Below, one piece after another: positions 24,450 through 51,861 of a DNA stretch of 64,000 nucleotides (position 1 is its first letter; every line of letters begins with the position of its first letter). Origin of the DNA: a virus (Duplodnaviria; Heunggongvirae; Uroviricota; Caudoviricetes); the IMG/VR virus record IMGVR_UViG_3300027710_001079, positions 128,833 through 192,832 of that record, one strand, 5' to 3'. Position numbers and translations under genes: made by a program. Under the pieces are notes generated by a model, which searched no databases, was not told where the DNA came from, and saw only the letters and a program-made list of their open reading frames with translations.

Positions 24450-24525
24450 ATAATTAAACAGGTTGCTTTTTTACGTTTTCAATTAAAAGTTGAATGTATT
24501 ATGTTTGCTGAACGCAACCTAAACT

Positions 24526-24599
24526 TGGTTCCTAGAACAAGAATCGAACTTGTAATGACCGGTTATCAGCCGATTGTTATACCATTTAACTATCCAGGA
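24526..24599 (-). tRNA. tRNA-Ile: tRNA-Ile(GAT), second copy
   Basis: Hand fold. D arm GTTA-AATGGTA-TAAC, anticodon stem ATCGG/CCGGT, loop CTGATAA, T arm ACAAG-TTCGATT-CTTGT, CCA encoded. Confidence 0.7.
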
Positions 24600-26167: not shown

Positions 26168-26188
26168 GCCCTTATTTATGTGGTACCG

Positions 26189-26217
26189 TTGTTTTTATAA
26201 TTAAATACAGCTATAAT
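26189..26217 (+). promoter_or_regulatory. sigma70-like promoter for the plus-strand sugar/glycosyltransferase operon
   Basis: TTGTTTttataattaaatacagcTATAAT, spacer 17. The -10 lies 10 nt upstream of the ATG at 26227. Confidence 0.45.
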
Positions 26218-26226
26218 TTTAATACT

Positions 26227-27036: not shown

Positions 27037-27044
27037 GGACATAT

Positions 27045-27695: not shown

Positions 27696-27698
27696 ACT

Positions 27699-35772: not shown

Positions 35773-36072
35773 TTGGGACTAGGAGTAAAAATGGGCGATA
35801 TTTTTAAAATTATCGGCGATCTTGGTATGCCTGTTGCGGCAGCACTTGCTGGTGGGTACTTTGTGTACTTGACTATCAAGCTGTTGTTGCAGGGCGTTCT
35901 TGGATCAATAAAAGGAATGGCTGGTATTATTACAGCACTTGATAATCGTGTTAAGACCATGAATCACGATGTTATACGTATTGACACAATCGTATCTAAT
36001 GCACTAGGTCTACGTCCTGACGCAGATCGTATTGCTCGTGCAGACGGTAAAAACGATGCAAGGAGAGACTAA
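35773..36072 (+). CDS. small membrane protein (holin-like candidate)
   Basis: ORF-track 99 aa. N-terminal hydrophobic helix GMPVAAALAGGYFVYLTIKLLL. Confidence 0.35.
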   Translation: MGLGVKMGDIFKIIGDLGMPVAAALAGGYFVYLTIKLLLQGVLGSIKGMAGIITALDNRVKTMNHDVIRIDTIVSNALGLRPDADRIARADGKNDARRD

Positions 36073-36266
36073 TGTTGCACCTTGAATACAATTGGGATCT
36101 GCACCCGGACAAAATTATACTAGATGACGAACTAAACACTGATCGGCTAGGTTGGAAGGGCGGAGACATTTTTAAATTCATCAATGTTGACGGTAAGCAA
36201 ATGCTGGTCAAAATGGATCCCCTAGTTGCTTTTGTTAAAGGCTTTAAGGTGAACTGCAATGAGTAA
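36072..36266 (+). CDS. hypothetical small protein
   Basis: ORF-track 64 aa. Its start overlaps the previous stop. Confidence 0.3.
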   Translation: MLHLEYNWDLHPDKIILDDELNTDRLGWKGGDIFKFINVDGKQMLVKMDPLVAFVKGFKVNCNE

Positions 36267-36406
36267 ATGGAATACTTGGTATGACAACTTGCCAGAGCAT
36301 ACAAAACAATATTTAAAATCTCAACCAATTTGGCACGACATTGACATGTGGAAAGCTGGCATATTGGGTGCAGTAGTAGGGTTCATTCTAGGAGTAATAT
36401 TATAAT
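36263..36406 (+). CDS. hypothetical small membrane protein (47 aa, hand-called)
   Basis: ATG at 36263 overlaps the upstream stop. MSKWNTWYDNLPEHTKQYLKSQPIWHDIDMWKAGILGAVVGFILGVIL. Confidence 0.25.
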
Positions 36407-36740
36407 GGATGTCGTTGAATTAGTAAACAAATATGGCTTCCCTATTGTTATGGCAGTAGGGATGGGATTCATTATCAAGTATGTGTGGGAATGGGCCACT
36501 AAGGAAGTGAAGCCAGTTATATCAGATGCCAACACAGTGTTGATTGCACTGATTGATCGAATACGTATGTTAGACAATGACCTTATCAGACTTAACCAAA
36601 AAGTTAATACAGTATTACATCTACGTGGTAAGACCATTGAGTTTGAACGTGTAGAAGCAGAGAAAGCAATTAATAAGATAGACCGCCCTAAAAGCGAGGG
36701 TAACGAAGATACTAAGTCAGCTGCCTCAGGTGAAAGTTGA
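36407..36740 (+). CDS. small membrane/coiled-coil protein
   Basis: ORF-track frame 36348..36740. Probable start at the internal MDVVELVNKYGFPIVMAVGMGFII (hydrophobic N-terminus). Confidence 0.35.
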
Positions 36741-37212: not shown

Positions 37213-39285
37213 TTACTTACTTGTGGCTATGAATACGCCGTTCCAATCAGCTGGTAGTACTTGTGTCTTTTGGAACTCACAGCGTTCTATCCACATGTCG
37301 TAGTATTTTTTCATTTGCCCGTCGAACTCATGTTTAAGTTCTTCGCACAGCTGAATAGCATCGTCCCATTTCTGCTGTCTATAACACAGGTGCATTTCAT
37401 TGTGAGTCTCTTGTGCTAACAAATATTCAGCAGCAACAGTTACATCAGGATCAAGAACTGTATAGATAGCAACTCCTACTGACTTACCTTTAACAGCTAG
37501 GTCGTCGATCTTAAGGAAGAAGAATTCGTTAGCACAACGTTCAACGGTTGCACCGCCTACTAATAACAAGCATCCGTATTCTTTACACTTACTTTCAATT
37601 CGTGCCGCAGTACTAACAGCATCGCCTAGTACATCGTAACTGTGTCTAGCAGTACTGCCCATCTCACCAATGTAGCCCAGTCCTGTATTAATACCTGCAC
37701 CCATACCAACTGGAGGACGTCCTTGCGGAACAATCACATCTCGGTTAAATGTATCTACAGCTTTAAGCATTTTCAATCCTGTGCGAACTGCTGTTGAAGG
37801 ATGATTAAGATCTTCAATAGGTGCATTGTGTATGTGCATACTAGCATCGCCAATGTACTTGATGATCATACCATCTGCATCTAATACAGGTTGTGTAATA
37901 GCATCCATGTAGCCGTTCATTATTTTTGTAAGTCCTGCAACATCATCGCCGAATGATTCACCTAAGGGTGTAAAACCACGTAAGTCCGAGAACAGTATGC
38001 TGACTTCTTTTTTAACACCTTTCTTGATCAAGTCTGGGTTTTCTTGTAGCAGTCTAACCACTGTAGGACTAGCGTAGCCTGCAAACTGTTTCTTGATTGC
38101 CTGCTTTTGTAAGAATTCGCTTACGAATTTAACTCCGTATGCATGTAATGCCACAAGCAATATGCCACTGACAAAAGCAGTAGCATCAAACAAATAAAGA
38201 TACTGGCTATAAGCATACATGCTGACAGCAACACCACCCACAGAAAGAGCAACCACTGTTCCAAGTCCAACATATACCCACCTTGTTAAAAATAATAATA
38301 GTACACCTGCTGCTAGGAGTACAATAATTTCTACACCATCTGCATAATCCGGACGCTGAATGGTTACATTGTTAATCATTGTGCCTATTACTGCGGCCTG
38401 TACTTCGTGTGGAAATACTGCACCCTTACTAGTAGGTAAAGGATTTGCAATGCCTGCGGCTGTTGGGCCCACGATTACAATCGCACCTGCTAGGTCTTTT
38501 GGAAGATTTAACATACTGACTGATTGACTGGTCTGACTCCAATCAATCCATATGCGACCTAAGTTGTCTGTTGCCACAGGACCAAACTTTGGAATACGCA
38601 TTTTTTCAACGCCACCTTCAAACAGTTTGACCTGGAACGTTGTATCGCCTGCCGCTACGCGGAGTGTCTCCATAGCTAAACTAGGATATAACTTACCGTC
38701 CACTGTGACAATTAACGGCAATCTGCGATTAACACCATCTACTTCTGGCAGTGTGTTTACAATACCAATACCTGCTGCTGCGTTTTCTAACACAGGCACG
38801 TTAGCAATTAGACCTGGATACTGTATGATTTGATCTAAGTGTTCTGGACCTAATACTGCTGAGCCAGGATTACGAGGTTCGTTCTTAGTCTTTTGTGCAG
38901 GAATGCTGCCCAATACTACTGGATATTCTTTTAGAGTTTTACCCAGTTGACTGTCACCACCTGTACGATCTGATTCTGGCATGAGTACGTTGAGTACCAC
39001 AAGGCCCGCTCCCCTCTGATATAAATCTCGTATAAGTCGGGAATACTCAACACGAGGTAACGGCCATTGTCCATATTTGTCTAAGCTCCCTTCATCAATG
39101 TTTACTGTAACAATGTTGTTAACAGTAGTTTCTTTAGCGGTGATTAGCGTATCAAAATAGCGTAGTCTTATACTTTCTACAAAGACAGGATCAGCAATTC
39201 TTATACTTAAAATAAGTGCCAATGTCAGCAGTGCTGTCCATGGACTAGTTAAAATTTTTTTAATTTTTGACATTAGCAGTTCCAA
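37213..39285 (-). CDS. membrane-anchored class III adenylate/guanylate cyclase with CHASE2-like sensor region
   Basis: N-terminal TM, ~350-aa extracytoplasmic region, second TM cluster, then FSDLRGFT...IKYIGDASM cyclase-homology-domain motifs. 690 aa. Confidence 0.65.
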   Translation of the reverse strand: MELLMSKIKKILTSPWTALLTLALILSIRIADPVFVESIRLRYFDTLITAKETTVNNIVTVNIDEGSLDKYGQWPLPRVEYSRLIRDLYQRGAGLVVLNVLMPESDRTGGDSQLGKTLKEYPVVLGSIPAQKTKNEPRNPGSAVLGPEHLDQIIQYPGLIANVPVLENAAAGIGIVNTLPEVDGVNRRLPLIVTVDGKLYPSLAMETLRVAAGDTTFQVKLFEGGVEKMRIPKFGPVATDNLGRIWIDWSQTSQSVSMLNLPKDLAGAIVIVGPTAAGIANPLPTSKGAVFPHEVQAAVIGTMINNVTIQRPDYADGVEIIVLLAAGVLLLFLTRWVYVGLGTVVALSVGGVAVSMYAYSQYLYLFDATAFVSGILLVALHAYGVKFVSEFLQKQAIKKQFAGYASPTVVRLLQENPDLIKKGVKKEVSILFSDLRGFTPLGESFGDDVAGLTKIMNGYMDAITQPVLDADGMIIKYIGDASMHIHNAPIEDLNHPSTAVRTGLKMLKAVDTFNRDVIVPQGRPPVGMGAGINTGLGYIGEMGSTARHSYDVLGDAVSTAARIESKCKEYGCLLLVGGATVERCANEFFFLKIDDLAVKGKSVGVAIYTVLDPDVTVAAEYLLAQETHNEMHLCYRQQKWDDAIQLCEELKHEFDGQMKKYYDMWIERCEFQKTQVLPADWNGVFIATSK

Positions 39286-39557
39286 CGACTTAATGCTTTG
39301 GCTTTTGGAGTAGGGCGTCCCTTCTCGTCTTTCATTGGTCCTTTGTTACCCGACATACGAGCACAGAAACTCTTACGGCGTTTTGCATCCTTGCTGCCTG
39401 CTTTTAATTTACTAGGCTTAGTAGTAACTGCTGTTTTTAATTTACTACCTGGATTCTCTCTACGATAAGCATTAACAGCTTTTTGACTTAGGCCGTCTGT
39501 CTTATCTTTTCTATTGACTTTATTCCAGTCTTCATTAATAAATTCGTGTGCTCTCAT
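39273..39557 (-). CDS. hypothetical basic protein
   Basis: ORF-track 94 aa. Lys/Arg-rich. Confidence 0.35.
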   Translation of the reverse strand: MRAHEFINEDWNKVNRKDKTDGLSQKAVNAYRRENPGSKLKTAVTTKPSKLKAGSKDAKRRKSFCARMSGNKGPMKDEKGRPTPKAKALSRWNC

Positions 39558-40099
39558 TGTCTTAAATCCTGCGGTGAACTGTTGGGAACATGATTAGGAC
39601 CATAACTGATCCTGCTGCCCGTAATCTTTTCCAATGCAACATGCAGACTTGGTCCGGTTAAATTCTTACGTAACCATTTCTCTGCTAGGTTGTTAATAAT
39701 CTTTTCATTACTTTGTGCTCTTCCGGGGCTCTTACTATGAACATATGCGTGATATGCTTCGTGTACTGCTACTCCAATATCACTCGCGGCATGACTTTCA
39801 AGATTTGGCAAATTAATGCTACCGCCCTCACCTTGATCACCTGTGGCTCTAAACATAGGAGGCTCCGAACTTTGATACACATAGTACATACCTGGTTCTA
39901 ATTCGTCCTCGTCGTCTGTGACATTACCGGCACCTAGTATGTTTTTGATTGCATCTATACAAGACCATAAGGTAGGTGCAGGTTGTCTCGGTAATTGAGT
40001 AGTTGGTAACATAGGCTTGTCTTCGGGATCAAAGTCACCCCAGCGTTGCCTTAATTCCGCATCACTTGCTTCTGCTTCTAGTAGTTCTTGTATTCGCAT
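39554..40099 (-). CDS. putative zinc metallopeptidase (HExxH)
   Basis: VAVHEAYHAYVH contains an HExxH motif. 181 aa. Confidence 0.3.
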   Translation of the reverse strand: MRIQELLEAEASDAELRQRWGDFDPEDKPMLPTTQLPRQPAPTLWSCIDAIKNILGAGNVTDDEDELEPGMYYVYQSSEPPMFRATGDQGEGGSINLPNLESHAASDIGVAVHEAYHAYVHSKSPGRAQSNEKIINNLAEKWLRKNLTGPSLHVALEKITGSRISYGPNHVPNSSPQDLRQ

Positions 40100-40106
40100 G
40101 ATGTAT

Positions 40107-40976
40107 TTACTTTAATTTTGTATCCAAATACAGTGCTGCACCCACACTTGATCCGGCATCGCCTGGATTTTTTGGAACATAGGTATGTTTAAATGTAGAT
40201 GAAAGTAGACGTTTTGCAGGCACATTATAAGCACAACCGCCTGTAAAAACGCAGGAATTACTGTGAAAAGATGCAAGTTTAAAGCAATTTTTTATCTGTT
40301 CCATGAACACACGCTGTACGCTGGCAGCTACGTCTGCACGATCTTTTTCTGCTACTTCCCAATCCCAAATTCCTTTGTGTAGATTCTTTGTTAGATAGCT
40401 GCTGACTTTTAAGTAGTTTGGTTCCCAGTCTCCAGAAGTTGCAAGTGCAGTTAGTTTACTTTCTTCTTGGACGGGTTTAAATCCCAGTAACTCTGTAAAT
40501 GCTGTATAAAATAAACCGAGACTAAAAGGATAACTTTTTGAAAATACTTTTTTAAATTTTTGATCTCGATAATGCCAGATACTCACAGTATCCCACTCGC
40601 CGATTGCATCAGCTACTACAACCGCAGTTTCTGTTAATCCACTTTCATATACAGCATTTGCTGCATGACTTAAATGATGCGGCACACAGTAGATTGGAAC
40701 AGATGGTATATTAAATTTTTTTAGGTAGAAGTATGGCAACTGATTGATACTAAATGCATCTCTGTATTGTCCTGCATATAGTTGTCTTGATTTTTTAATC
40801 CAAGGTTGTTCGTACCAAGCAATTGCATCTATTGGAGCATATGACAATGCACGAGCAACTATTTCTGGACATAAGTCGACTCCGCAGAGAGAGCGTTCAT
40901 GATGTAGTATTTGACCGTCGTGAATAACTGCAACACTTGCATCGTGATTTAGAGCATTTATTCCTAGTATATTCAT
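40107..40976 (-). CDS. carbamoyltransferase N-terminal (Kae1/NodU-like) domain protein
   Basis: MNILGINALNHDASVAV...VPHHLSHAANA matches the NodU/CmcH N-domain. 289 aa (about half the length of full carbamoyltransferases). Confidence 0.45.
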   Translation of the reverse strand: MNILGINALNHDASVAVIHDGQILHHERSLCGVDLCPEIVARALSYAPIDAIAWYEQPWIKKSRQLYAGQYRDAFSINQLPYFYLKKFNIPSVPIYCVPHHLSHAANAVYESGLTETAVVVADAIGEWDTVSIWHYRDQKFKKVFSKSYPFSLGLFYTAFTELLGFKPVQEESKLTALATSGDWEPNYLKVSSYLTKNLHKGIWDWEVAEKDRADVAASVQRVFMEQIKNCFKLASFHSNSCVFTGGCAYNVPAKRLLSSTFKHTYVPKNPGDAGSSVGAALYLDTKLK

Positions 40977-41082: not shown

Positions 41083-42837
41083 TTATTGTTGTTTAACTGT
41101 GGTGTTACATCCTGATAAAATTGCACAACTCTGTATTAGAGTAAAGTTCTTGCCGCCGCCTTGTTCTAGATCAACAGTTGCTGCACCGCCAGCATTAGTT
41201 ACATCAATCTGTGCATTGTTTGCATTTGCACCATATTGATTAACTTTTACATTATGCCCGTTACCAGTCATTCTAACATCAAGGTAGTGTTGGCCTGCAC
41301 CTGATTGAGTAGTAGTTAGGGTGTTGCTATCACCGTTGACTGTGCTAAACAACAATCTGTTATTGTTATTATTCTGCGTATGATTTACAGAGTTGTTATT
41401 ACCGTTAATAGTAGTTTCGGCATAGTTAGTACCAATAGTATTTGTTTGATTGGTAGTAAGACTATTTTGATAACCATTAACATCTGCTTTAAGATAGTTT
41501 GATCCAATCTGTGTAAGATTTAAATTATTAGTGCCAGCTCCGTCCAAAGTTAGTTCTACTCTGTTCTTTGTGCCAGACAACGAGATAGTTACGTTATTAT
41601 TATCCCCACCTATCTGATCAACATACACTGCATTGCTGTATGGTGCTGGACTATTAGCCCAAGTATTGATTCTAGTTTGTTGTGATGTTCTGCTAGAATT
41701 ATTGACATAAGTACCGCCACTTTGTATAGTTTGATTTGAAGGTGCGTTAGTCTGAGTGATTGTTCCGCCTACTACTGTTGGACCGCAATCGGCACAGATA
41801 CTGCCGGATGTTCCTGGATTGCTCGGAGTACCTCCTGATCCAGTAGCTGTTGAAGTTACTCCGTCATTTAGATCGTAATAAAAAGTGACTTCAGCAATCT
41901 GCATACTGTCGCAATTTAATCCACACCCATCGCCTGACTTAGTTGTGGGAAATAATATAAAATAGTAAACATAGGCATTTGTATTTGCTACCATGATTTC
42001 TGGACTTGTCCAAAAACGTTGCTCACTTAAAGTCACAGTGTCTTGTTTGATCAATACCCAATTAACCCCGTCATTACTGCCGTAGAGTTTATAGCTGGTA
42101 GGATCTCGTCCACTGAAGTCATTAGCAGTGGTCAATGTGAATTTTTGTACTACACGACCTTGACTTAATTTAACAGTAACACCTGCGTTTTTCTTATCAA
42201 AGTTCAAATACTTAGTTCCAGAGTTTCCGTCAAATGCTTGTGTTGCACCTTCGCCGGCAGGGCTATTATTACTTGTTGGATAGATGTTACTGATCACAAC
42301 TGGGGAGCTAGTAGTTCTAATAGGTTGCCAGTTGACTGTTGGAGTCGGCGGTGCTGCTGTCTGTCCTGCTGCTAGTGGAGTTGAACTAGCATAGGTATAA
42401 TTGTTTAAGTCTGTGCTAGTAACACTAGTATCCATATTAGTAAAACTAGCACTCGAACCGTAGCTGTAGCCTTGGGCGGTAGTAATAACATTGCCAAAGA
42501 ATCCACTACCAATGTAAAAAATAGCACCATTACCCAAGGCAGTGATATCACCGTGATCGTGTACAATGCTATGCTGTGTGCCGTTGCTGTTCATTAACTT
42601 TAATCCGTGCTTACCCGGATTAGTTGTGCTGTCAAAGAATTGAAAGTATTGACCTGCGGTAACCGTTACTGTTTGAAAGTTTTTATTGTAAGGTGCAATG
42701 AAGTTACTGGCGTTTAAAGTAGTGCCGCTCCAATAATATTGTACATCAAATATTTGATTGATACCAAACTTGCCGTCAGTGATGGCACCAAAGGCATTAG
42801 AGCATAACAGTAACAGTGCTAGAAATATTTTCTTCAT
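41083..42837 (-). CDS. secreted protein with discoidin (F5/8 type C) domain and C-terminal curlin-like Q/N-rich repeats
   Basis: Signal peptide. GEGATQAFDGNSGTKYLNFD...YKLYGSNDGVNWVL is discoidin-like. The C-terminus has TQIGSNY/NGYQNS/INGNNNS repeats. Confidence 0.5.
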   Translation of the reverse strand: MKKIFLALLLLCSNAFGAITDGKFGINQIFDVQYYWSGTTLNASNFIAPYNKNFQTVTVTAGQYFQFFDSTTNPGKHGLKLMNSNGTQHSIVHDHGDITALGNGAIFYIGSGFFGNVITTAQGYSYGSSASFTNMDTSVTSTDLNNYTYASSTPLAAGQTAAPPTPTVNWQPIRTTSSPVVISNIYPTSNNSPAGEGATQAFDGNSGTKYLNFDKKNAGVTVKLSQGRVVQKFTLTTANDFSGRDPTSYKLYGSNDGVNWVLIKQDTVTLSEQRFWTSPEIMVANTNAYVYYFILFPTTKSGDGCGLNCDSMQIAEVTFYYDLNDGVTSTATGSGGTPSNPGTSGSICADCGPTVVGGTITQTNAPSNQTIQSGGTYVNNSSRTSQQTRINTWANSPAPYSNAVYVDQIGGDNNNVTISLSGTKNRVELTLDGAGTNNLNLTQIGSNYLKADVNGYQNSLTTNQTNTIGTNYAETTINGNNNSVNHTQNNNNNRLLFSTVNGDSNTLTTTQSGAGQHYLDVRMTGNGHNVKVNQYGANANNAQIDVTNAGGAATVDLEQGGGKNFTLIQSCAILSGCNTTVKQQ

Positions 42838-43949
42838 CGTTGTGTTATAGTAATAATAGTATTACCGCCCGAATTTACTCTATTACTAAATTCAATACTA
42901 CCTTGAATTTGTGTAATTAAACTATTTTGAGTCAACGGAGTAGTTACACACTGTATGTCACTGCCGTTGTCGCGGCATAGACCAATTTGTCCTTCATCCT
43001 TAGTTACAATAATACCGCTGCTTCGTCTCCAATCTGGTAGCACACTGTCCACATCGTCTTTTAAGTAATCTTCATCTAGCCCACTGCCTATAATATCAAA
43101 TAGACTATCTAGAAAATGATTTTCTAGAAAGTTACGACTTAGTCGATCTTGAAAAAATTGTGCGTTTTGTTTTTCCAAGGCATTTTCGTCTAGCCCTGAG
43201 AATTTTAAAAAGTCAATATCTAGCAAACTTCGTTGTTCGTAATCACTGCGTCTAGTTTCAGTTAGTTCTCTCGGCGGACTTAAAATAAGAATATTGCTGA
43301 TAGCATCTTCGGACAAGTTCAATATTACTGGGGTCCTAGGAACTTGACTTCTACTGGCCACAGTAGTTGCTTGAAATGCCTGATTCATTATGACTTGACC
43401 AACATCTGTTTCAACAATAATAGTGCCCACTACACAGTTGCTGTTAACTTCGTCTCTGTTACGTACTGGTTTGTCATTGGGACAACTTGGTAACAGAATA
43501 ATAGTGCTGGCCCCTACTTCATCTACTGTGGCGGTAAAATCAGTACCACGAACTGAGATAGTAGCAGTAGGTGTATTAACGGCAACGTTTTGCGGGCTGT
43601 TCTTGGCAATTTGTCCACTGGCATATCTAACAGTGCCCAATGCAACCTTAACACCCAGCTTACCGGATTTTGATTTTGGATCATAAACAAAGTCGTCGAT
43701 TACTAATCTCGAATTCTCATTGACCTGTACTCGAGTCTGATCTTCGAATGTTATGCCTACCTTGCCCACTGCTGTTTTCACAGAGTCGTTCATTTCCACT
43801 CCCGTGCCCTTGGCTCCGGTCAGTGTGGCATTCTTCCGCTGTATACTGGGAGGGGTGTTCAGCAACTCTGTCACTGTTCCGATACTGGCTTGACTGTTCA
43901 GCGAGGTACTGATCAATAAGCCTAATAAGATTAAGCGACATAGTTTCAT
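42834..43949 (-). CDS. secreted protein (FecR-like beta-sandwich?)
   Basis: Signal peptide MKLCRLILLGLLISTSLNSQA. 371 aa. Confidence 0.3.
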   Translation of the reverse strand: MKLCRLILLGLLISTSLNSQASIGTVTELLNTPPSIQRKNATLTGAKGTGVEMNDSVKTAVGKVGITFEDQTRVQVNENSRLVIDDFVYDPKSKSGKLGVKVALGTVRYASGQIAKNSPQNVAVNTPTATISVRGTDFTATVDEVGASTIILLPSCPNDKPVRNRDEVNSNCVVGTIIVETDVGQVIMNQAFQATTVASRSQVPRTPVILNLSEDAISNILILSPPRELTETRRSDYEQRSLLDIDFLKFSGLDENALEKQNAQFFQDRLSRNFLENHFLDSLFDIIGSGLDEDYLKDDVDSVLPDWRRSSGIIVTKDEGQIGLCRDNGSDIQCVTTPLTQNSLITQIQGSIEFSNRVNSGGNTIITITQR

Positions 43950-43957
43950 TTCACACC

Positions 43958-44737
43958 TTAATTACCAGTGGTAATGCTGTATGTGTTTCCGCTTCCTGCT
44001 ACAGCAAGATTAACATTGGTATTGATACTACCACTCTGTACAACTGTGGTATTGTTATTTGATCCATTGATATTCAATGTTGCAATGTGACCATCGGCAC
44101 CACCACCACTTTGGGTAATGTTAGTTGCGTTACTAGCACCTAATATAGTTAAATCTACTGTGCCTTTTGCACCAGTTAAATTTAACGTAGTGTTGTTTGC
44201 AGTTCCACCAGTCTTATTAATGTTTACACTAACTTGATCCGCATTGATTGTAGCAACGATTTGATTCAAGTTGCCGTCTGTTACAGCACTAAAGGTGTTG
44301 TTAGATCCTAGCATATTAAGATTGGCAATAGTATTGTCACCTGTTTGATCAATAGAAACAGTGTTACTATTTGCAGTACCCTGTTCGCTATTGTTCATAT
44401 TGATTGTACCAATACCGTTATTACCAGTTACTCGATATAGAATACTAGTATCAACGCCGCCACTAGCTGTGGCAGTTACAACGCCTAGATTTAAAATGTT
44501 ACCACTACCAACTTGTTCAACAGTCAAAGTTACGTTGTCGCCTTTGATTTTTGACGGGGTAGTGTTGCCCGTGCCCGTGCCTTGAATTCCTCGGATACGG
44601 TTTGTTGCACCATCCTGTAGCATGGTGATAACAGAGTTGTCGCCTGTTTGATCAATATAGATACTATTGTCTGCTGCGAAAACTTGTGAAGCGAACAACA
44701 TCACGATCGCTGTCATTACTTGATTTAGCTTCTTCAT
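43958..44737 (-). CDS. curlin-repeat amyloid subunit (CsgA/CsgB-like)
   Basis: Signal peptide. Repeated (S/I)-x-Q-x-G-x-x-N units, e.g. IDQTGDNSV, VEQVGSGNI, SIDQTGDNTI. Confidence 0.55.
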   Translation of the reverse strand: MKKLNQVMTAIVMLFASQVFAADNSIYIDQTGDNSVITMLQDGATNRIRGIQGTGTGNTTPSKIKGDNVTLTVEQVGSGNILNLGVVTATASGGVDTSILYRVTGNNGIGTINMNNSEQGTANSNTVSIDQTGDNTIANLNMLGSNNTFSAVTDGNLNQIVATINADQVSVNINKTGGTANNTTLNLTGAKGTVDLTILGASNATNITQSGGGADGHIATLNINGSNNNTTVVQSGSINTNVNLAVAGSGNTYSITTGN

Positions 44738-44794
44738 ATATTTCTTCAGTTCTTTTGAAACTGCTCCTTGGGGTGTTATTTGTTGCTCCCCGAT

Positions 44795-45709
44795 TTACTT
44801 GGCCCTAACTTCTTTGCTTCCTCCAGCATCTTTCTCGTTGCTGGGCTGTGTCGTTGCGGCTGTGCCTTGTGGGGCTCTTTCGCTTTCGGTGTTCTTTTGA
44901 ACCAACTCATTTTTTTCTCCCTTATAGTCCCAAAGCCCTTTACGAGCTCCTTCTTTAATAAGTTCAACCACGCCTGCTTCAATTGCTGATTTTACAGCAT
45001 ATGTTCCCGGCTCGTTTATTGTAAATCCTGCTTCACCTTCGAATGCTCTGGTGCCCATGTCAAAGAATTTAAGAGCAGTTACAGCATCGGCAGAACTGAG
45101 AATAGTTTTCTGTACAGTCACTGACGCTAATATTTTACCAGTATTAACACTCACCGCTCTTATACTGATAGTCACAACATCTTGACTCCACTGTGTTTGC
45201 TTACCGATGCCGAACACTCTAGCACCGAGGCCGCCGCTTTTTGTTGAGCTATCATAGCCCACAATACCACCTTCAATAATCATTCCAGCAAATTGCATTG
45301 GCATCAAAGGTTTAGCACTTGGCCCCTCATACGCTTCACGCATCTGTCTAATGATTAATCTTTCTTTGGTTAAATTATCAAGCCCTACACGCTCAACAAC
45401 ATCAAACCATTGTCCTTTGCCTACATCCTGTAATGCCTTGATCAAAAACGATTCTGCACCCTGTGTCACTGCCATTGACAAACTAGCAATGTTACTCTGC
45501 GGACGTCTCTGTCCTGTCATATCTCTAAAACTGTATACAGCCACACTCACAGGTTTGCCGCCAGCCGGTGCAGGAATAGTATCAAATTCTTTCTGCATCA
45601 TTACTTTTGCTACTTCAGGCTTGTCTGCCTCCACTAAAGGATTATTTTGATGTATTGCACAGCCAGACAACAGTGTTACGATCGCCAGTGTTAATAATGT
45701 CTTTTTCAT
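44795..45709 (-). CDS. csgG: curli production assembly/transport lipoprotein CsgG
   Basis: Lipobox LLSGCA. IPAPAGGKPVSVAVYSF..TGQ, WFDVVERVGLDNL..ER.IIR and GYDSSTKSGGLGARVFGIGKQTQ...VNTGKILASV...KTILS align block-by-block with E. coli CsgG. Confidence 0.85.
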   Translation of the reverse strand: MKKTLLTLAIVTLLSGCAIHQNNPLVEADKPEVAKVMMQKEFDTIPAPAGGKPVSVAVYSFRDMTGQRRPQSNIASLSMAVTQGAESFLIKALQDVGKGQWFDVVERVGLDNLTKERLIIRQMREAYEGPSAKPLMPMQFAGMIIEGGIVGYDSSTKSGGLGARVFGIGKQTQWSQDVVTISIRAVSVNTGKILASVTVQKTILSSADAVTALKFFDMGTRAFEGEAGFTINEPGTYAVKSAIEAGVVELIKEGARKGLWDYKGEKNELVQKNTESERAPQGTAATTQPSNEKDAGGSKEVRAK

Positions 45710-45710
45710 A

Positions 45711-46190
45711 TTATTTTCCTGGAATTACAAATTGGCTTAGGGGAATATCAATAGTTGTATTAATATCAGGACCAACTACGGTTAAACGAATCATATCTCC
45801 GTTCACCAAATCAGAAATTTTTTCCCACTTGATTTTACTTCCTTGGAAGTCTACTTCACCTGAACAAGTTGTTGACGTTGTAGTGCAACCACTGTTGGCA
45901 AACATAGCTGTAGCTACGTTTTGACTAATCTGTGCATAAATTCTAGATTCTAAGTTGTTTAAAAACTTAGCTAAGTTAGTATTCTTTTTATCAGCGGCTT
46001 CTTTATCAATGGCCGCTTGGATTTTGTCTTGAAGAGCTTTACGACGAGTAGCTTCTTGATTCTCAATCGTCAAGACGTGACTGCTATATCCTATGCCGTT
46101 GAAAGCAGGACTTTTAAAAGTAAAGTCGTTTATTGGTGCAGCCTGTGCAGTCATCGCAGACAAGGCCAGGCTGAGAATTAAAAATCGCAT
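45711..46190 (-). CDS. csgF: curli assembly protein CsgF-like
   Basis: Signal peptide, then TFKSPAFNGIGYSS (compare E. coli TFQFRNPNFGGNPNNG). Size ~140 aa mature, immediately upstream of csgG. Confidence 0.55.
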   Translation of the reverse strand: MRFLILSLALSAMTAQAAPINDFTFKSPAFNGIGYSSHVLTIENQEATRRKALQDKIQAAIDKEAADKKNTNLAKFLNNLESRIYAQISQNVATAMFANSGCTTTSTTCSGEVDFQGSKIKWEKISDLVNGDMIRLTVVGPDINTTIDIPLSQFVIPGK

Positions 46191-46266: not shown

Positions 46267-47913
46267 TTAAATTCCTGGTTTAATACCAGTTTGTGGTGCG
46301 GGAGTTGTGCCTAGTGTACCTTTAGACTGAACTGGTGCACCTATTTTAGGTTTGCTTACTGCTAGTGCAGGCTGCTTTGGTGCCGCTACAGTGGGTTTAA
46401 CCGCAGGTTGTTTTGCAGCTAATTTATTAACAGGCTGTGGCTGTTTAGCCTGTTGCTCTATGTGATTTTCAATATCAGCAATGTTTTTCAGCAACGACCC
46501 CATACCTAACATGTTACGAATAGATCCATCTTTTAATTGCGATGTCAAATCTACTAGTTTACTATTAGCATCTTTTCTTCCCGGAACATACTTCTTTGCA
46601 ATACTGCCTACCGGAAATCCGTAAATTGAAATATTAAAAGAAGAAGCTCTATCAGATTCTGTAACGACTAATTGTAATTGTTTTAATGCTTGATAAAACG
46701 CTGGACCAAAATCTAGTTCTTTAAAGGCTTTCTTGTCATCAGGATCTAAAATAACCATTTCAACACCTTCTTCGTGTCTAGTTAAGTGATGCAATAATCC
46801 TTGATAAACATCTTCAACTAAATTTGCCTGATCAGTCGCTGCCCTAGATTTCAGCTGTTTAAATGCTGTACTAAAGGCACTACTAACACCGTTGTTAAAG
46901 TTATGTTCCTTTTGGTCAGAAGTATCGCGTGTACCCGGGCGAATATCGTAGAAATATTTCTTTAGAGTAGGTGGCAAAGTTACACCCACAGCATTGAAAA
47001 ATTCACTAACGTGTTCAAAATTTGCACCAGTAACTTGTCCAAATTGTGCTACGTTTCCTGCTTTAATGCTTAGTAATCTCTTTGCAGATTCTTTGCCGTC
47101 GATTAAAATTTTTAAATCTACTTTAGTACTGCTTTGATTTTCTTTCTCGCCACCATCGCTGATAACGTCAACTTTGTTTTGTTGAGGATCATTTGCTGCT
47201 TCTTGAATAGCTGCCTGTACTCTTTTCGAAGTATTTGCATATTCAATTGCAGTTCTAGCACGTCTTTCAATCAATGCGATCGACTCAGCAGGTACGTTGT
47301 AATCTTGTAAAGATCGACCACGACTATCTTCGTTCAACCAAGCATAAAACGCTTTCTTATCCATAAAAGGAATTGACACTTTAAAAATAAGTTTATCTTT
47401 TCCTGCGGTTGTTTCGATATAGCCTTTATTACGAGCAATCTGTTTGCCCATAGACACTAGTTGCTGTTCTGTTACTGGCTTGCCGCCTGATGCAAATTTT
47501 GCAGCTACTGCACATCCTAATAACGCTTCGGAGATATTGCCCATGTTAGGCTTTAGTTCTCCCTTGATTTTTTCATCTTTAAAAATGCTGTTAATAGGAA
47601 CGTTTTCAATAACTCTTCCAGTTGAGTTTCCGTCCTCATCAACTTCTGCTACTGAAAATTTAATTTTTGCGGCGGCGAAATCTTTTTGATCCCAATCTGC
47701 AACAGCATCTCCAACAGCCTGTCTAACTAGTTCGGGATTTTGGATAATTCCCTCAAACCTGTTTCCTTTTGGAAATTCGAAAGCATATACTTGTTGATTT
47801 TCTAATCCATCAATGAAACTATCAATGTATTTCTCTTTCATCCATTCGCTATTGGTCATCATTCCTTCTTTAAGAAATGATCTTGATTCTTTTAAAAATT
47901 CACGTGCTCGCAT
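46267..47913 (-). CDS. hypothetical protein with Pro/Ala/Lys-rich C-terminal tail
   Basis: ORF-track 548 aa. Confidence 0.4.
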   Translation of the reverse strand: MRAREFLKESRSFLKEGMMTNSEWMKEKYIDSFIDGLENQQVYAFEFPKGNRFEGIIQNPELVRQAVGDAVADWDQKDFAAAKIKFSVAEVDEDGNSTGRVIENVPINSIFKDEKIKGELKPNMGNISEALLGCAVAAKFASGGKPVTEQQLVSMGKQIARNKGYIETTAGKDKLIFKVSIPFMDKKAFYAWLNEDSRGRSLQDYNVPAESIALIERRARTAIEYANTSKRVQAAIQEAANDPQQNKVDVISDGGEKENQSSTKVDLKILIDGKESAKRLLSIKAGNVAQFGQVTGANFEHVSEFFNAVGVTLPPTLKKYFYDIRPGTRDTSDQKEHNFNNGVSSAFSTAFKQLKSRAATDQANLVEDVYQGLLHHLTRHEEGVEMVILDPDDKKAFKELDFGPAFYQALKQLQLVVTESDRASSFNISIYGFPVGSIAKKYVPGRKDANSKLVDLTSQLKDGSIRNMLGMGSLLKNIADIENHIEQQAKQPQPVNKLAAKQPAVKPTVAAPKQPALAVSKPKIGAPVQSKGTLGTTPAPQTGIKPGI

Positions 47914-47919
47914 AATAAG

Positions 47920-48588
47920 TTATTTACCAATTTCAGGGAACAGCACTTGATCAACAAACTGCCGAATAGTTGTTTCTGGAACGCCCATTGCAATCATACT
48001 GCGGTACACATGCGGATTCTGTTTCTGATTTTGACAGTAGTAATTTTGCCGCTCAGTAACATCAACTCCGTTAATCCTGTCTCCTATATTATGCAGGTAG
48101 TAATCTAGGGTTTTAATCCCTAAATCAACAAGATTATCTAATTCTGTTTGCTCACTGATGTTGCCCGCGGCTACCATTGCAGGACTAAAAATATTGCGGG
48201 CCCATTCCGGTAGTTCGCGTTGTTTATTCCAGGTTATGCTACTGGCAGTTTCTTTAAACCATTCGTGCATATAATGACTGTCGTTTACAAGACTAAAGTC
48301 GTGAAACGCACCAGTAATCTTATTCTTACCACAAACGGCATCAAATCCCCAAATAGGACTAGGATCGTCTACGTGTGGGAACACTGTTGCATGTAGAATA
48401 TATATTCCGTGTGTTGCAGTTTTATCTACTACTTCAACGTGCCCTCTACGGAACAGGTTGCTGTGGTATACGTGATTTTCCCAGTCGTATTGATCTAAGC
48501 TAGGATCTTCTGCTCTGTAACCTGCATGTTCCATCATAGACTGCATCGTTTCGGCACACTGCCGCATCTGTGTCCATACTGTGCTCAT
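47920..48588 (-). CDS. ferredoxin-dependent bilin reductase (FDBR; PebB/PcyX-like)
   Basis: VDKTATHGIYILHATVFPHVDDPSPIWGFDAVCGKNKITGAFHDFS is the FDBR core. Paralog of the adjacent gene. Confidence 0.6.
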   Translation of the reverse strand: MSTVWTQMRQCAETMQSMMEHAGYRAEDPSLDQYDWENHVYHSNLFRRGHVEVVDKTATHGIYILHATVFPHVDDPSPIWGFDAVCGKNKITGAFHDFSLVNDSHYMHEWFKETASSITWNKQRELPEWARNIFSPAMVAAGNISEQTELDNLVDLGIKTLDYYLHNIGDRINGVDVTERQNYYCQNQKQNPHVYRSMIAMGVPETTIRQFVDQVLFPEIGK

Positions 48589-49301
48589 TGATGTACTCCT
48601 ATCTTAGGAAATAGGCAGTCCTGTATAAACACACGAACGTCTTCTGGATTTAGTCCTAATGCAGTCATCACCTTAGGAGTGTGGGGATTCTGTCTTTGAT
48701 TTTCACAGTAGTAATCTTGCGAAGGTCCGGTGTCTAATGCAGTACCGTTAGTTTCACCTACAGCACTAATATAATGCTTCAAGTTATTAATAGCAGTAAA
48801 ATACAGTTGTTGAAGCTCCTCTGGATCATTGACATTTCCTGCACTGATCATACTGGGAGTAAAGATACGTTCTGCCCAGTCTGGTAAACGTCTAACTTTG
48901 TTCCATTCTAATTTTTGTGCTTCGTCTGCAAAGTAATCTAACATAGGATGCTCAGGATCACCTGCAGGACTAAAGTCGTGAAATGCACCTGTTACTTTGT
49001 TTCTGCCAGCTACTACATCGAACCCAAAGATAGGTGCAGGATTATGAGTATGCGGAAACACACAACAATGCATCATCCAGAGACCTCGAGTTTCTCTAGC
49101 ATCAACAACATCTATATGTGCTCGGCGATATAATTTACTGGTCCAGACTTTGTTGTACCAACTAAATCTTTCTAGGCCTGGCTCTTGTATTTCTGTTCCA
49201 CTGAGATTGAATTGTCTTTCAAACTCAGTTTGTATATCAATTAGACTGTTCCAGACCAAGCTCATTGTTATATGACTCCATAATTTTGATAGCCCATTCA
49301 A
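48585..49301 (-). CDS. ferredoxin-dependent bilin reductase (FDBR; PebA/PebS-like)
   Basis: VDARETRGLWMMHCCVFPHTHNPAPIFGFDVVAGRNKVTGAFHDFS FDBR core. Confidence 0.6.
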   Translation of the reverse strand: MNGLSKLWSHITMSLVWNSLIDIQTEFERQFNLSGTEIQEPGLERFSWYNKVWTSKLYRRAHIDVVDARETRGLWMMHCCVFPHTHNPAPIFGFDVVAGRNKVTGAFHDFSPAGDPEHPMLDYFADEAQKLEWNKVRRLPDWAERIFTPSMISAGNVNDPEELQQLYFTAINNLKHYISAVGETNGTALDTGPSQDYYCENQRQNPHTPKVMTALGLNPEDVRVFIQDCLFPKIGVHQ

Positions 49302-49788
49302 AAGCTACATTGGCTTCATCGCCCATGCTGTCATCTAACTTAGCACGAATGTTAGTTTTTAATGTGTTAGCATCTTCAAATTCTAAATTGCGGTGTGGAC
49401 CTGGAACAATTTTCTTGATCATTTGTCCACCAAACATATCTCCCATGTGCCACACATATAAATGTGCCATAATTTTATTAGGGTCTTGACTGATGCTTAA
49501 AATATAATTGTAATAATCAATAACTAATGATCGATATGAATGACGAGGATACCCCTCATTCATATCGTTGTAGTCCATGTTTAGATAAAATGCTCTACGC
49601 AGATCTGGAAGATCTCCTAGCAATCTATTAGCACCTGCTGCTCCTTCAATTGCACCGTAAAATAATGACTTCTGTAAAGTCCAATCTGTCCATACTTCTC
49701 TTGGTAATGTTTTTGCAAACACTGCCTTCATAAAAGGTGTGTGTTCTGCTCTATCATGATTTTCTGCTGTTAGTTCTTTAAGACTCAT
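49237..49788 (-). CDS. ho1: heme oxygenase
   Basis: LKELTAENHDRAEHTPFMK and KIMAHLYVWHMGDMFGGQMIKK align with the HO-1 motifs LKEATKEVHTQAENAEFMR and [22 protein letters not shown]. Confidence 0.8.
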   Translation of the reverse strand: MSLKELTAENHDRAEHTPFMKAVFAKTLPREVWTDWTLQKSLFYGAIEGAAGANRLLGDLPDLRRAFYLNMDYNDMNEGYPRHSYRSLVIDYYNYILSISQDPNKIMAHLYVWHMGDMFGGQMIKKIVPGPHRNLEFEDANTLKTNIRAKLDDSMGDEANVAFEWAIKIMESYNNELGLEQSN

Positions 49789-51015
49789 TTAATCCTCGTA
49801 ACGTTCTAATACTGCACAAGCGGCCCTGCCACCAAATGCAAAATTATTCTTTATCGCATACTTAGCCACTATTGCGGTAGCCTTAGTGGGGATATTGATT
49901 CCTACATCAATTGGGTTAATTAAATTTACAGTAGGAGGTGATATTTGATCTCGTAGTGCTAACACAGTATAGATAGTTTCAACAATCCCACTGGCTGCTA
50001 ATGTGTGTCCAATTTGACCTTTATTTGCAGTCATTGTAGTGCCTGGCAATAAGTCACGCATAGCATAGAATTCAATGTCGTCGCCTGCTTTTGTTCCAGT
50101 AGCATGTGCATTAATATAACCGACATCTGCTAACTGTATGCCTGCTTGCTTTATTGCTCTGGTTACTGCTAATTTTGCAGCATCACCATTTTTATCCGGT
50201 GCAGTATCATTATTGCCACATGTGGCAATTCCTACAGACTTGATTATTCCGTAAATCTTTGCACCTCGTGCCTTAGCTTTATCTAACGGTTCGACAATTA
50301 GTGTGCCAGCGGCTTCTCCTACTACAAATCCTGATCTATCTTTGTCAAAAGGTCTACTTGCAATTTCTGCTGGTTGTAAACTTAATGCACCGAGATTTTG
50401 AAAGTAGTATACTTGGAAGCCTTCAATCGGTACATCGGCACCTCCCACAATGACAGCATCGAGATCGTCATTGAATTCTAGTTGCTTAATAGCATAATCA
50501 AGACCAGTCAGTCCAGTTGAACATGCAGAGTGCATCGAAGTTGACCCACCGTTACATTCGTATATTCTAGCAATCAATCCGCTAATGTAATCCGCAGTTG
50601 CCTGTATTACTTGCCTCGGGGAAACTCTCTCGCGACCATCTTCTAGTTGCCGCATCATGTATGCTCTACTATGTAAACTTCCGCCGGTGGTACTAAACAC
50701 TACTGAAACATTTTTGCTAGTAAGACTGCTGTCTCTGATAGCATCTCTAGCAGTGTGCATTGATATTTTAACACACGGATCCCAATACTGGTGATGTCCT
50801 CCGAATTCTGTTTCTTCAAACGCAGGCAGCGGGCACGGTGCCCCAGAAGAGACAATTAAAGATTTATGTGTTCTTGGAAATTTTGTTGGATCATCTTCGG
50901 GCCACTTGATTTGTTTAATTGCAGTTTCCCCTGCTAACAAATTCAGCCAATTTTCCTGTACGCTTGCTCCAAGACCGTTGATAATTCCCATTCCGGTAAT
51001 GGCGTACTGTTTCAT
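49789..51015 (-). CDS. beta-ketoacyl-ACP synthase (KAS I/II, FabF/FabB-like)
   Basis: Active-site Cys in SMHSACSTG, then HATGTKAGD and GHTLAASG (the Cys-His-His triad region). Confidence 0.7.
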   Translation of the reverse strand: MKQYAITGMGIINGLGASVQENWLNLLAGETAIKQIKWPEDDPTKFPRTHKSLIVSSGAPCPLPAFEETEFGGHHQYWDPCVKISMHTARDAIRDSSLTSKNVSVVFSTTGGSLHSRAYMMRQLEDGRERVSPRQVIQATADYISGLIARIYECNGGSTSMHSACSTGLTGLDYAIKQLEFNDDLDAVIVGGADVPIEGFQVYYFQNLGALSLQPAEIASRPFDKDRSGFVVGEAAGTLIVEPLDKAKARGAKIYGIIKSVGIATCGNNDTAPDKNGDAAKLAVTRAIKQAGIQLADVGYINAHATGTKAGDDIEFYAMRDLLPGTTMTANKGQIGHTLAASGIVETIYTVLALRDQISPPTVNLINPIDVGINIPTKATAIVAKYAIKNNFAFGGRAACAVLERYED

Positions 51016-51320
51016 TCTTCTTCGATCCTTACTGCTAGCGGCCAGCCATTTTGTCTAGCAAGCATTGTGCTTTCTACACCTTTTTGCTCTGCGACTTCAT
51101 ATGTATAAACACCGGCAATACCTGCACCTTGTTCGTGTACCTGCATTGTTATTTCCCTTGCCTTTGCCTCACTGTGCTTAAACACATGCATCAACAATGC
51201 AATGACAAAATCCATTGGGGTGTGATCATCATTTAGTACAATCACTTTATACATGCCGGGCGTTATAATGTCGAAATCTTCTTCAATATCAACAATATCT
51301 TTGGTTTTGGTATTTGCCAT
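51012..51320 (-). CDS. clpS: ATP-dependent Clp protease adaptor ClpS
   Basis: MYKVIVLNDDHTPMDFVIALLMHVFKH is the canonical ClpS core. 102 aa. Confidence 0.8.
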   Translation of the reverse strand: MANTKTKDIVDIEEDFDIITPGMYKVIVLNDDHTPMDFVIALLMHVFKHSEAKAREITMQVHEQGAGIAGVYTYEVAEQKGVESTMLARQNGWPLAVRIEEE

Positions 51321-51356
51321 ATAGACTTTCTAAAAAGGGGGCCGGAGCCCCCGGGC

Positions 51357-51782
51357 TTACTTGATGGCGATCAAGCGAGGCTTGAGTGCTTCAGGTACTA
51401 CTCGTGTAAGTTTAACACGAAGAATACCGTTTGTCAACTCTGCATCGCCCACAATCATGTAGTCTGCCAGTGTAAAGCTTCGCTCAAAATCACGAGCAGC
51501 TAGCCCACGATGTAGGTATTTGCTAGCATCGTCTTCTTTTAACCGATTGCCTTTAATGGTCAGTAGATTTTGATCCACTTCCACAGTAACGTCCTCTCGA
51601 TCAAAGCCTGCCACAGCGATTTCGATCTCAAAGTGATCGTCATCGTGTTTCAGAACATTGTACGGAGGGTAGTTGGTTTGTACGGAGTTTGCAAATCGCT
51701 TTTCAACATCGTTAAAAAGGCTGTCAAATCCAATAAGTGCTCTGTTTAGAGCCTGAGTGTCAAATCGTGTTAATGCGTTCAT
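51357..51782 (-). CDS. ibpA: small heat-shock protein (Hsp20/IbpA family)
   Basis: PPYNVLKHDDDHFEIEIAVAGFDREDVTVEVDQNLLTIKG alpha-crystallin domain. Start set at the internal MNALTRF. Confidence 0.75.
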   Translation of the reverse strand: MNALTRFDTQALNRALIGFDSLFNDVEKRFANSVQTNYPPYNVLKHDDDHFEIEIAVAGFDREDVTVEVDQNLLTIKGNRLKEDDASKYLHRGLAARDFERSFTLADYMIVGDAELTNGILRVKLTRVVPEALKPRLIAIK

Positions 51783-51861
51783 AGTTTTCTCCTTAATAAG
51801 CAAGAACGTTTTGGGCACCATGCCCATTTTGTAGAACCCTAACGGCGTCCTACAAAATTAT

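Follow-up and report, generated by a model that had tools for sequence, protein, structure and literature searches.

Curli-type (type VIII) secretion genes have been discussed as phage cargo since 2020, when Zaragoza-Solas et al. reported a curli operon in a phage as the first of its kind and put forward "sibling capture" (PMC7029224). Buchholz et al. (2022) modeled the CsgGF complex of Melnitz, a phage of Methylophilales (OM43), and proposed that it forms a gated pore that times lysis (PMC9004378). Wittmers et al. (2022) detected a full set in myo- and podo-pelagiphages, comprising CsgF, CsgG, CsgA/B, FecR, a second CsgA/B, a cyclase and short "histidine kinase" genes, one or two of which precede csgF (PMC9599517). 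According to the latter study, viral cassettes lack CsgE, CsgC and CsgD, and an alphaproteobacterial origin was inferred; viral curli genes were found at 65 of 65 GOV2.0 stations, with transcripts in ocean metatranscriptomes, and account for ~0.1% of assembled viral proteins in ocean viromes (PMC9599517). Aggregation, superinfection exclusion, pore function and lysis have all been discussed as roles (PMC7029224, PMC9004378, PMC9599517). Here, we analyze a cassette of this type at positions 41083-46190 of a 64,000-nucleotide stretch of DNA, hereafter the window, from a virus of the Caudoviricetes (IMG/VR record IMGVR_UViG_3300027710_001079, positions 128,833 to 192,832 of that record).

The cassette consists of five co-oriented open reading frames (ORFs) on the minus strand, each with a Sec-type signal peptide, encoding in order CsgF, CsgG, a 259-aa curlin-repeat protein, a 371-aa FecR-domain protein and a 584-aa modular protein. 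Successive genes are separated by 1, 57 and 8 bp, except for the final pair, which shares 4 bp. With moderate confidence, we favor an interpretation of the locus as a type VIII (curli-type) secretion cassette, carried by the phage, that builds sugar-binding adhesive fibers and is accompanied by a periplasm-sensing cyclic AMP (cAMP) module.

A tblastn search of the window CsgG against 50,697 phage records returned Pelagibacter phage HTVC008M and four Melnitz methylophages (45% identity), in which the matching genes are already annotated as curli components; the HTVC008M annotation is said to be that of Zhao in 2013. A first-pass annotation of the window, made from the sequence without database searches, had called a virus with its own amyloid export channel unusual. 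That assessment does not stand, as the same cassette is annotated in HTVC008M and Melnitz and has been discussed in the papers cited above; the coordinates and gene order given at the time proved exact.

The window shares with these phages the order of the genes, which in HTVC008M and Melnitz encode CsgF, CsgG, a protein with a curlin-associated repeat, a FecR-domain protein, a second curlin-repeat protein and an adenylate cyclase. It also shares the lack of CsgE, CsgC and CsgD, a pair of small proteins assigned to phrog_18771, and the overlap of the FecR stop codon with the next start. The differences are considerable. Protein identity is 27%-51% (45% for CsgG). At the nucleotide level no similarity exists: a 16-kb stretch surrounding the cassette, compared by megablast with the same phage records, yielded a single 65-bp match at chance level. 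The carrier is a different phage, larger and uncultured; the described phages infect SAR11 and OM43. The second curlin protein bears a CBM32/discoidin domain and an extra N-domain where that of HTVC008M has PA14, three unrelated genes precede the cyclase, and the small-protein pair, upstream of csgF in those phages, is here found past the cyclase on the opposite strand.

A CsgG channel with a CsgF partner

The 304-aa lipoprotein matches Pfam PF03783 (E 2.3e-49; 168 bits, cut-off 20.8), and its residues 5-265 align with solved E. coli CsgG structures (E 4e-52), so profile searching bears out its initial identification as CsgG. A lipobox (LLSG/C17) is present, and the protein ends in a low-complexity C-terminal tail of ~40 aa. 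The NCBIfam CsgG model scores 188 bits, under its equivalog cut-off of 505; across the system, scores for CsgG, CsgA and CsgB stay far short of the corresponding cut-offs. The constriction loop, TGQRRPQSNIASLSMAVTQ, is one residue longer than that of E. coli, and E. coli residues Y51/N55/F56 correspond to Q71/S76/L77 in the window. The loop consensus, TGQRRPQ-ANxASLSxAVTQ, is conserved in 40 phage CsgG homologs. CsgG from the alphaproteobacterial loci described below has S-F at the last two constriction positions; in the window and in these loci, the loop is of an S-F/S-L type. Many relatives (L011-L015, L019-L023, L027 and L031-L043) have a longer CsgG of 380-442 aa, versus 304 aa in the window and ~280 aa in HTVC008M; the C-terminal extension of 100-170 aa that these proteins bear is presumably periplasmic.

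CsgG-like exporters are also found in the holdfast anchor of Caulobacterales, where HfaB exports curlin-like proteins that hold a polysaccharide adhesin; the Hfa system lacks CsgF. The window resembles the Caulobacter HfaA/HfaB/HfaD system in combining a CsgG-like exporter with curlin-like proteins, and the logic of the holdfast system parallels an amyloid that bears a glycan-binding module. It differs in having CsgF, and no HfaA or HfaD match was seen. We rejected an HfaB identity for the window protein, which scores 25 bits against the NCBIfam HfaB model (cut-off 300), versus 188 bits against CsgG.

The CsgF-like protein matches Pfam PF10614 above the gathering score (E 5.9e-8; 33.4 bits, cut-off 25.8), in agreement with its first description, and matches phrog_35372 at E 2e-46. 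Its signal peptide ends in ...AQA/AP. An N-terminal motif, DFTFKSPAFNG, corresponds to TFQFRNPNFGG of E. coli, the segment that plugs into the CsgG barrel, and F25, P28, F30 and G34 of the resulting motif, F-x-F-K-x-P-x-F-x-G, are invariant among 17 homologs. A profile of these 17 sequences has E. coli CsgF as its top PDB matches, albeit at an E value of only 0.25, and phmmer of the single protein against the PDB gave only spurious matches to a designed Kelch repeat protein.

The CsgG channel and the CsgF plug motif are features the window has in common with the csgBAC-csgDEFG system of E. coli and Salmonella, along with the beta-solenoid subunit discussed next. It departs from that system in its constriction residues and in lacking CsgE, CsgC and CsgD. 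The CsgE, CsgC, CsgH and CsgD/GerE families are not among the precomputed Pfam matches of any called gene in the window, and the intergenic gaps inside the cassette (≤106 bp) leave no room for further genes such as csgE, consistent with the earlier remark that neither csgE nor csgD was to be seen. The window system further adds a lectin-fused second subunit and a FecR/CHASE2-cyclase module.

The repeat protein is a CsgA/B-type subunit

Curlin identity was the weakest part of the first-pass annotation and is disputed in the literature: csgA and csgB were said to be missing from the phage cassette by Buchholz et al. (PMC9004378), and CsgA/B was detected in it by the hidden Markov models of Wittmers et al. 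(PMC9599517). The 259-aa protein carries a signal peptide followed by ~9 repeats of ~22 aa with Q-x-G-x(-x)-N turns; it has no cysteines and is 15% Asn. Its sole Pfam family match, Curlin_rpt, is sub-threshold (E 0.056; 13.8 vs. 20.7 bits, over four stretches), and NCBIfam returns only CsgA (E 3.9e-6) and CsgB (E 0.004), far under their equivalog cut-offs.

The wider family is more informative. We collected 370 homologs, and about one-third of the 120 listed have a recorded PF07012 match. In an alignment of 47 homologs, the invariant columns are the Q, G and N of the Q-x-G-x(-x)-N turns. Searched against all PDB sequences, the family profile gave exactly two matches, both to CsgA (Pontibacter korlensis, 8c50, E 2.2e-9; E. 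coli, 8enq, E 0.012). The AlphaFold2 model (predicted local distance difference test [pLDDT] 85.9; predicted template modeling score [pTM] 0.82) is all-beta with a period of ~22 residues. Because the alignment columns, PDB profile matches, NCBIfam results and structure model agree, we conclude that the protein is a genuine CsgA/B-type subunit, as first proposed, with about nine repeats compared with five in E. coli and Salmonella.

A second curlin-like protein with a variable head

The 584-aa protein is modular. A signal peptide and a beta-rich N-domain (aa ~28-135) are followed by a Pro/Thr/Ala linker, a CBM32-like domain (~170-325), a low-confidence linker and a solenoid (~400-584). Pfam PF00754 (F5_F8_type_C) matches aa 189-268 at E 1.3e-9 (38.7 bits, cut-off 28.2). 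When the predicted model of the middle domain was searched with Foldseek, 120 PDB entries matched at E≤0.001 (best 8.7e-8), with CBM32 modules leading (template modeling scores 0.6-0.77); the modules matched bind galactose, N-acetylgalactosamine (GalNAc) or N-acetyllactosamine (LacNAc). The middle domain is therefore modeled as an F5/8 type C beta-sandwich of the CBM32 fold, and it may bind sugars. No Pfam match at E≤10 was obtained for the N-terminal 190 aa, and BLASTP of the N-domain against PA14-bearing orthologs was negative.

The C-terminal 185 residues (aa 400-584) are predicted by AlphaFold2 to form a confident beta-solenoid (pLDDT 80-90). Curlin_rpt is sub-threshold in this part (E 0.034) and above threshold in the orthologs from HTVC008M, L016 and L032 and in 666-aa relatives (P0114-P0120). 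The combination of a discoidin domain with curlin-type repeats, read initially from the sequence, is thus recovered by domain match, fold and solenoid. The cysteines of the mature protein fall into three close pairs (C305/C309, C348/C351 and C571/C577), and such short-range pairing would be compatible with export as an unfolded chain.

Across loci, this fifth protein varies from 188 to 844 aa. Its C-terminal curlin-like part is common to the relatives. What changes is the N-terminal part: the window and its closest relatives have F5/8-C (CBM32), HTVC008M, L017 and L030 have PA14, and elsewhere there is no recognizable domain or no extra domain. PA14 and F5/8-C are both carbohydrate-binding folds, and the second curlin protein thus appears, from its domain composition, to have an exchangeable sugar-binding head. 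Exchangeable or lectin domains of this protein go unmentioned in the three papers on phage curli (PMC7029224, PMC9004378, PMC9599517). The predicted CBM32 fold lends support to the lectin-tipped subunit suggested by the first-pass annotation. The fusion as such is common, with >1,700 homologs in metagenomes, one of which is labeled "F5/8 type C domain/Curlin associated repeat" by JGI.

Conservation of both curlin-like genes argues against a pore alone

The order CsgF, CsgG, repeat protein, FecR, variable protein, 0-4 unrelated genes and CHASE2 cyclase is shared by 37 viral loci, in which the start of the variable protein overlaps the FecR stop codon. Comparing the window with two relatives, we obtained ratios of nonsynonymous to synonymous substitution (dN/dS) of 0.06-0.14 for all six conserved genes, including both curlin-like ones (0.06 for the 584-aa gene); synonymous sites are close to saturation, and these ratios are overestimates if anything. 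All six genes are thus under purifying selection.

These data bear on the proposal that CsgG, with or without CsgF, serves only as a gated outer-membrane pore, secretin- or pinholin-like, that times lysis, with the repeat proteins not acting as fiber subunits. Such a role was put forward for Melnitz, and Melnitz-infected cells show no clumping in cytograms or transmission electron microscopy (PMC9004378). In the window, CsgE, the usual periplasmic gate, is not among the Pfam matches, the constriction residues differ from those of E. coli, and phage cassettes are accompanied by two holin-like small proteins with a transmembrane segment and a coiled coil. We nonetheless consider this proposal improbable. 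Both curlin-like genes are kept in nearly all loci, under selection as strong as that on CsgG (dN/dS 0.06-0.12), the 259-aa protein is a true CsgA homolog, and the bacterial ancestors carry the same pore-plus-subunit set. Moreover, as is known from lysis systems, an outer-membrane pore by itself cannot depolarize the inner membrane.

FecR and a CHASE2 cyclase as probable parts of an inherited block

The 371-aa protein, initially described only as secreted, does have a signal peptide; its FecR domain (Pfam FecR, E 1.3e-10, aa 58-149) had gone unrecognized. It matches phrog_37870 at E 2.5e-125. The C-terminal half is conserved, although aa 150-371 (222 aa) gave no Pfam match at E≤10, and the family profile has no relative in the PDB. 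The stop codon of the FecR gene lies in a 4-nt overlap with the start of the gene that follows.

A further conserved gene, missed in the first pass, begins 1.8 kb downstream of the five-gene cluster and encodes a membrane cyclase with CHASE2 (E 3.3e-39) and Guanylate_cyc (E 1.9e-15) domains. Its identity to the cyclases of Melnitz and HTVC008M is 51% and 35%, respectively. The gene is conserved as the final member of the cassette and is found in most loci that carry one, as well as in bacterial loci L055-L057. In some relatives, a separate ORF of 105-120 aa lies immediately before csgF (L035 9122-9442, L039 9124-9486, L040 9159-9476) and resembles the C-terminal helical domain of the cyclase (aa ~575-685).

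To look for the origin of the cassette, we searched a FecR family alignment against one genome per prokaryotic species. Metagenome-assembled genomes (MAGs) of Caulobacteraceae and a Henriciella genome (396-kb contig) have the gene order of the phage cassette, with CsgF, CsgG, one or more curlin-like proteins, FecR and a CHASE2 cyclase at 31%-46% identity. In these loci, L055-L057, the genes lie on the same strand, flanked by ordinary bacterial genes such as those for TonB receptors and FAA hydrolase. The FecR gene in the bacterial loci directly overlaps the cyclase gene, with no lectin-curlin fusion between them; the two are adjacent or overlapping in L055-L057, L060 and L063. Hoeflea marina and a Hyphomicrobiales MAG have the FecR-cyclase pair without CsgGF. 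From this synteny, the cassette appears to have been acquired as a block from Alphaproteobacteria, FecR and cyclase together with CsgGF. What the phages have added is the protein encoded between FecR and the cyclase, along with the pair of small membrane proteins.

Operons that pair FecR with CHASE2 have been described in Burkholderia and Sinorhizobium meliloti (PMC5192318, PMC5498481). As in the Burkholderia BiofilmReg operon, the P. aeruginosa PA4035/36-type pair and S. meliloti CyaD1 with SMc02177, a secreted FecR protein in the window stands beside a membrane protein with a periplasmic CHASE2 domain. With the CyaD1 pair it would share a cAMP output. In Burkholderia BiofilmReg, by contrast, a LysM domain accompanies FecR, and CHASE2 belongs to a histidine kinase; none of these pairs is linked to CsgG/CsgF. 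Given the bacterial synteny and the FecR-CHASE2 pairs elsewhere, we regard FecR and the cyclase as a pair that came with the type VIII secretion system genes. They are neither a phage addition nor an iron regulator in the FecIRA sense; they may instead constitute an envelope-sensing pair.

An ungated CsgG leaks small molecules, and together with the FecR domain this could suggest an uptake channel, in which the pore imports cofactors, iron complexes or other solutes and FecR takes part in iron-citrate-like signaling. Uptake has been raised for phage curli before (PMC7029224, PMC9599517). We find it very unlikely here: the FecR protein is soluble and secreted and lacks the anti-sigma N-terminal domain, no FecA or FecI partner is among the Pfam matches in the window, and the conserved bacterial partner of FecR is a CHASE2 cyclase, not a TonB receptor system. 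CsgF, two curlin proteins and a CBM32 module would also be left without explanation. The pore-only and uptake readings alike account for CsgG and leave the conserved, selected subunits and the lectin module unexplained.

The cassette resides on an uncultured large phage

Several features place the cassette on a phage genome, as the first-pass annotation had it. The window contains rIIA (58203-60377) and rIIB (57149-58225; Pfam Phage_T4_rIIB), and the nearest relatives of rIIA, at 32% identity, are those of PA5oct-like jumbo phages. All 20 amino acids are served by 37 tRNA genes, which are arrayed with interspersed small ORFs at 8975-24599 on the minus strand and include three tRNA-Pro(tgg), two Met(cat) and one Ile(tat); such a set is unusually complete for a phage. 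The remainder of the window consists of dense small genes and auxiliary metabolic genes.

The alternative, that 41083-46190 is host chromosome or a misassembled bacterial fragment, could point to the syntenic CsgF-CsgG-curlin-FecR-cyclase loci of Caulobacteraceae and Henriciella and to the several MAG bins that contain cassette contigs. We attach almost no probability to it. The bacterial versions are only 35%-46% identical, and several independent assemblies contain the exact window proteins with the same neighbors, in contigs as long as 88 kb and 192 kb. In addition, the cassette is present on 37 IMG/VR viral contigs, the longest of 229 kb (CsgG identity 60%-88%). Neither an integrase nor an attachment site was seen, and GC content shows no break across the cassette region. 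With the rII genes, dense small ORFs and tRNA array on the same contig, these observations led us to reject a chromosomal origin. The carrier is an uncultured large phage without close kin among isolates.

Cassette contigs of 1.5-104 kb (L048-L054) are binned in MAGs of unrelated phyla, labeled as an actinobacterium, Flavobacteriaceae, Polynucleobacter, Rhodobacteraceae, Luteolibacter and Bacteroidetes. Because several of them carry the phage-specific phrog_18771 proteins, they are probably phage contigs that were mis-binned.

Extent of the system and neighboring genes

The system is not limited to 41083-46190: it takes in the cyclase (37213-39285) as well as a pair of small membrane proteins (35791-36740), the latter likewise overlooked in the first pass (Table 1).

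Table 1. Positions of the cassette genes and associated features in the window
Feature	Position	Strand	Evidence
CsgF-like protein, 159 aa	45711..46190	-	Pfam PF10614, phrog_35372
CsgG outer-membrane lipoprotein channel, 304 aa	44795..45709	-	Pfam PF03783, PDB CsgG
Curlin-repeat subunit, CsgA/B-like, 259 aa	43958..44737	-	Repeats, family profile, model
Secreted FecR-domain protein, 371 aa	42834..43949	-	Pfam FecR, phrog_37870
Modular secreted protein, 584 aa	41083..42837	-	F5_F8_type_C, CBM32 fold, C-terminal solenoid
Carbamoyltransferase-N-like protein (289 aa), 181-aa protein of no known function, DUF6321 protein (94 aa)	39273..40976	-	Pfam
CHASE2 membrane adenylate cyclase, 690 aa from TTG (686 aa per JGI)	37213..39285	-	Pfam
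Small membrane protein, 93 aa, N-terminal transmembrane helix and coiled coil	35791..36072	+	phrog_18771
Paralogous small membrane protein, 111 aa	36405..36740	+	phrog_18771

The small membrane proteins match phrog_18771 at E 2.9e-30 (93 aa) and E 4.7e-29 (111 aa) and are holin-like in size and topology. Among the 50,697 phage records, proteins of this family occur only in HTVC008M and Melnitz, where they lie directly upstream of csgF. The pair is linked to the cassette in 28 loci and is absent from the bacterial loci; it is also present at L001 6838-7400 and L002 6960-7598. It is more conserved than the cassette, the 93-aa protein being 87%-100% identical in loci where CsgG is just 64%-88% identical. 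No HisKA or HATPase match was found in Pfam at E≤1. The pair probably corresponds to the short "histidine kinase" genes of Wittmers et al.

The three genes between the second curlin gene and the cyclase occur only in the closest relatives, L008 and L009, and are missing from other cassette loci; they are lineage-specific inserts and probably lie outside the system. On the other side, directly upstream of csgF, a 548-aa ORF (46267-47913, minus strand) encodes a phrog_3560 protein with a Pro/Ala/Lys-rich tail, no signal peptide and no Pfam or NCBIfam match. It is kept next to csgF in L008, L009, L034 and L043, with unrelated ORFs of ~450-520 aa filling the slot elsewhere; since so few relatives keep it, we left it out of the system. 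Consensus scans for promoters and terminators performed at the level of shuffled sequence (30 vs. 29.3 and 7 vs. 7.8, respectively), and we therefore drew no operon boundaries from them.

The surroundings of the cassette are rich in metabolic genes. Directly upstream of the cassette region, on the minus strand at 47920-49788, lies a phage bilin-synthesis module consisting of a heme oxygenase (183 aa) and two tandem ferredoxin-dependent bilin reductase paralogs (PF05996; 238 and 222 aa), in a genome without sign of a cyanobacterial host. It is followed at 49789-52647 (minus strand) by a row of genes for a FabF-type ketoacyl synthase, ClpS, HSP20, a PfkB-family kinase and a cytidylyltransferase-like protein. 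On the longer contig, NAMPT and a gene for a NadR-like nicotinamide mononucleotide adenylyltransferase/NUDIX protein are situated just past rIIA. An island with reversed GC skew at 26158-33645 (plus strand) encodes a GT34 glycosyltransferase, two DegT-type aminotransferases, a split thiamine pyrophosphate-dependent enzyme and two NAD-dependent epimerases/dehydratases, and looks like a sugar-nucleotide or surface-glycan modification cluster. Positions 1-6000 have a GC content of 32%-34%, versus ~40% elsewhere, and encode a Rieske-domain protein and a radical S-adenosylmethionine enzyme. A TROVE/Ro-like protein (phrog_850) is encoded at 6990-8405 and QueC at 10118-10738.

Discussion

We propose the following model for the cassette. 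During infection, Sec would export all five products into the periplasm. The CsgG lipoprotein would form an outer-membrane channel, capped by CsgF through its N-terminal F-x-F-K-x-P-x-F-x-G peptide. The 259-aa protein would cross this channel unfolded and polymerize outside into a beta-solenoid fiber, which the 584-aa protein may nucleate or join by means of its curlin-like C-terminal solenoid, displaying its CBM32 module. The infected cell would thereby gain glycan-binding adhesive fibers. FecR and the CHASE2 cyclase would act as a separate, co-inherited envelope-sensing module that makes cAMP in response to a cue in the periplasm. For the phage, the probable gain is that infected cells aggregate or attach, or that competing phages meet a barrier. 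Remodeling of the host surface, suggested in the first-pass annotation, stays the leading hypothesis, though most of the functions it listed had already been raised in published papers.

Several observations weigh against this model. Both curlin-like proteins of the window fall under the Pfam Curlin_rpt gathering score, and Foldseek found no significant PDB match for the model of the 259-aa protein, whose mature N terminus lacks a Gly-rich targeting segment like N22 of the enterobacterial subunit. For passage through a CsgG channel, a substrate of 584 aa that contains two folded domains is large, and the phage cassette lacks CsgE. The only published result with a bearing on the model, a lack of clumping among Melnitz-infected cells, is a negative one, and the evidence for a FecR-cyclase partnership comes from gene neighborhood.

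A more elaborate version can be imagined, in which the cassette is a single surface-sensing adhesion device imposed on a planktonic host without curli. Swappable lectin heads (CBM32 or PA14) would engage the glycans of neighboring cells or particles, FecR would report the secretion or load state of CsgG to the cyclase so that contact or aggregation leads to a cAMP signal that reprograms the infected cell, and the small proteins would couple the device to the phage program. We offer this as speculation and think it rather unlikely.

As a discovery, the locus is incremental: its genes were correctly identified at the outset, and its novelty was not. What it adds to the published cassettes is modest, namely the exchangeable sugar-binding heads and the extension of synteny with bacteria to FecR and the cyclase. 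Phages of SAR11 and OM43 are not the only carriers of the cassette, which is also found in a large, tRNA-rich uncultured phage lineage with many metagenomic relatives. The CsgA-type subunit, the exchangeable head, the co-inheritance of FecR and cyclase, and purifying selection point to glycan-directed adhesion over a mere pore. Phage curli systems are globally abundant, and through them hosts without curli would gain an entirely new surface structure.

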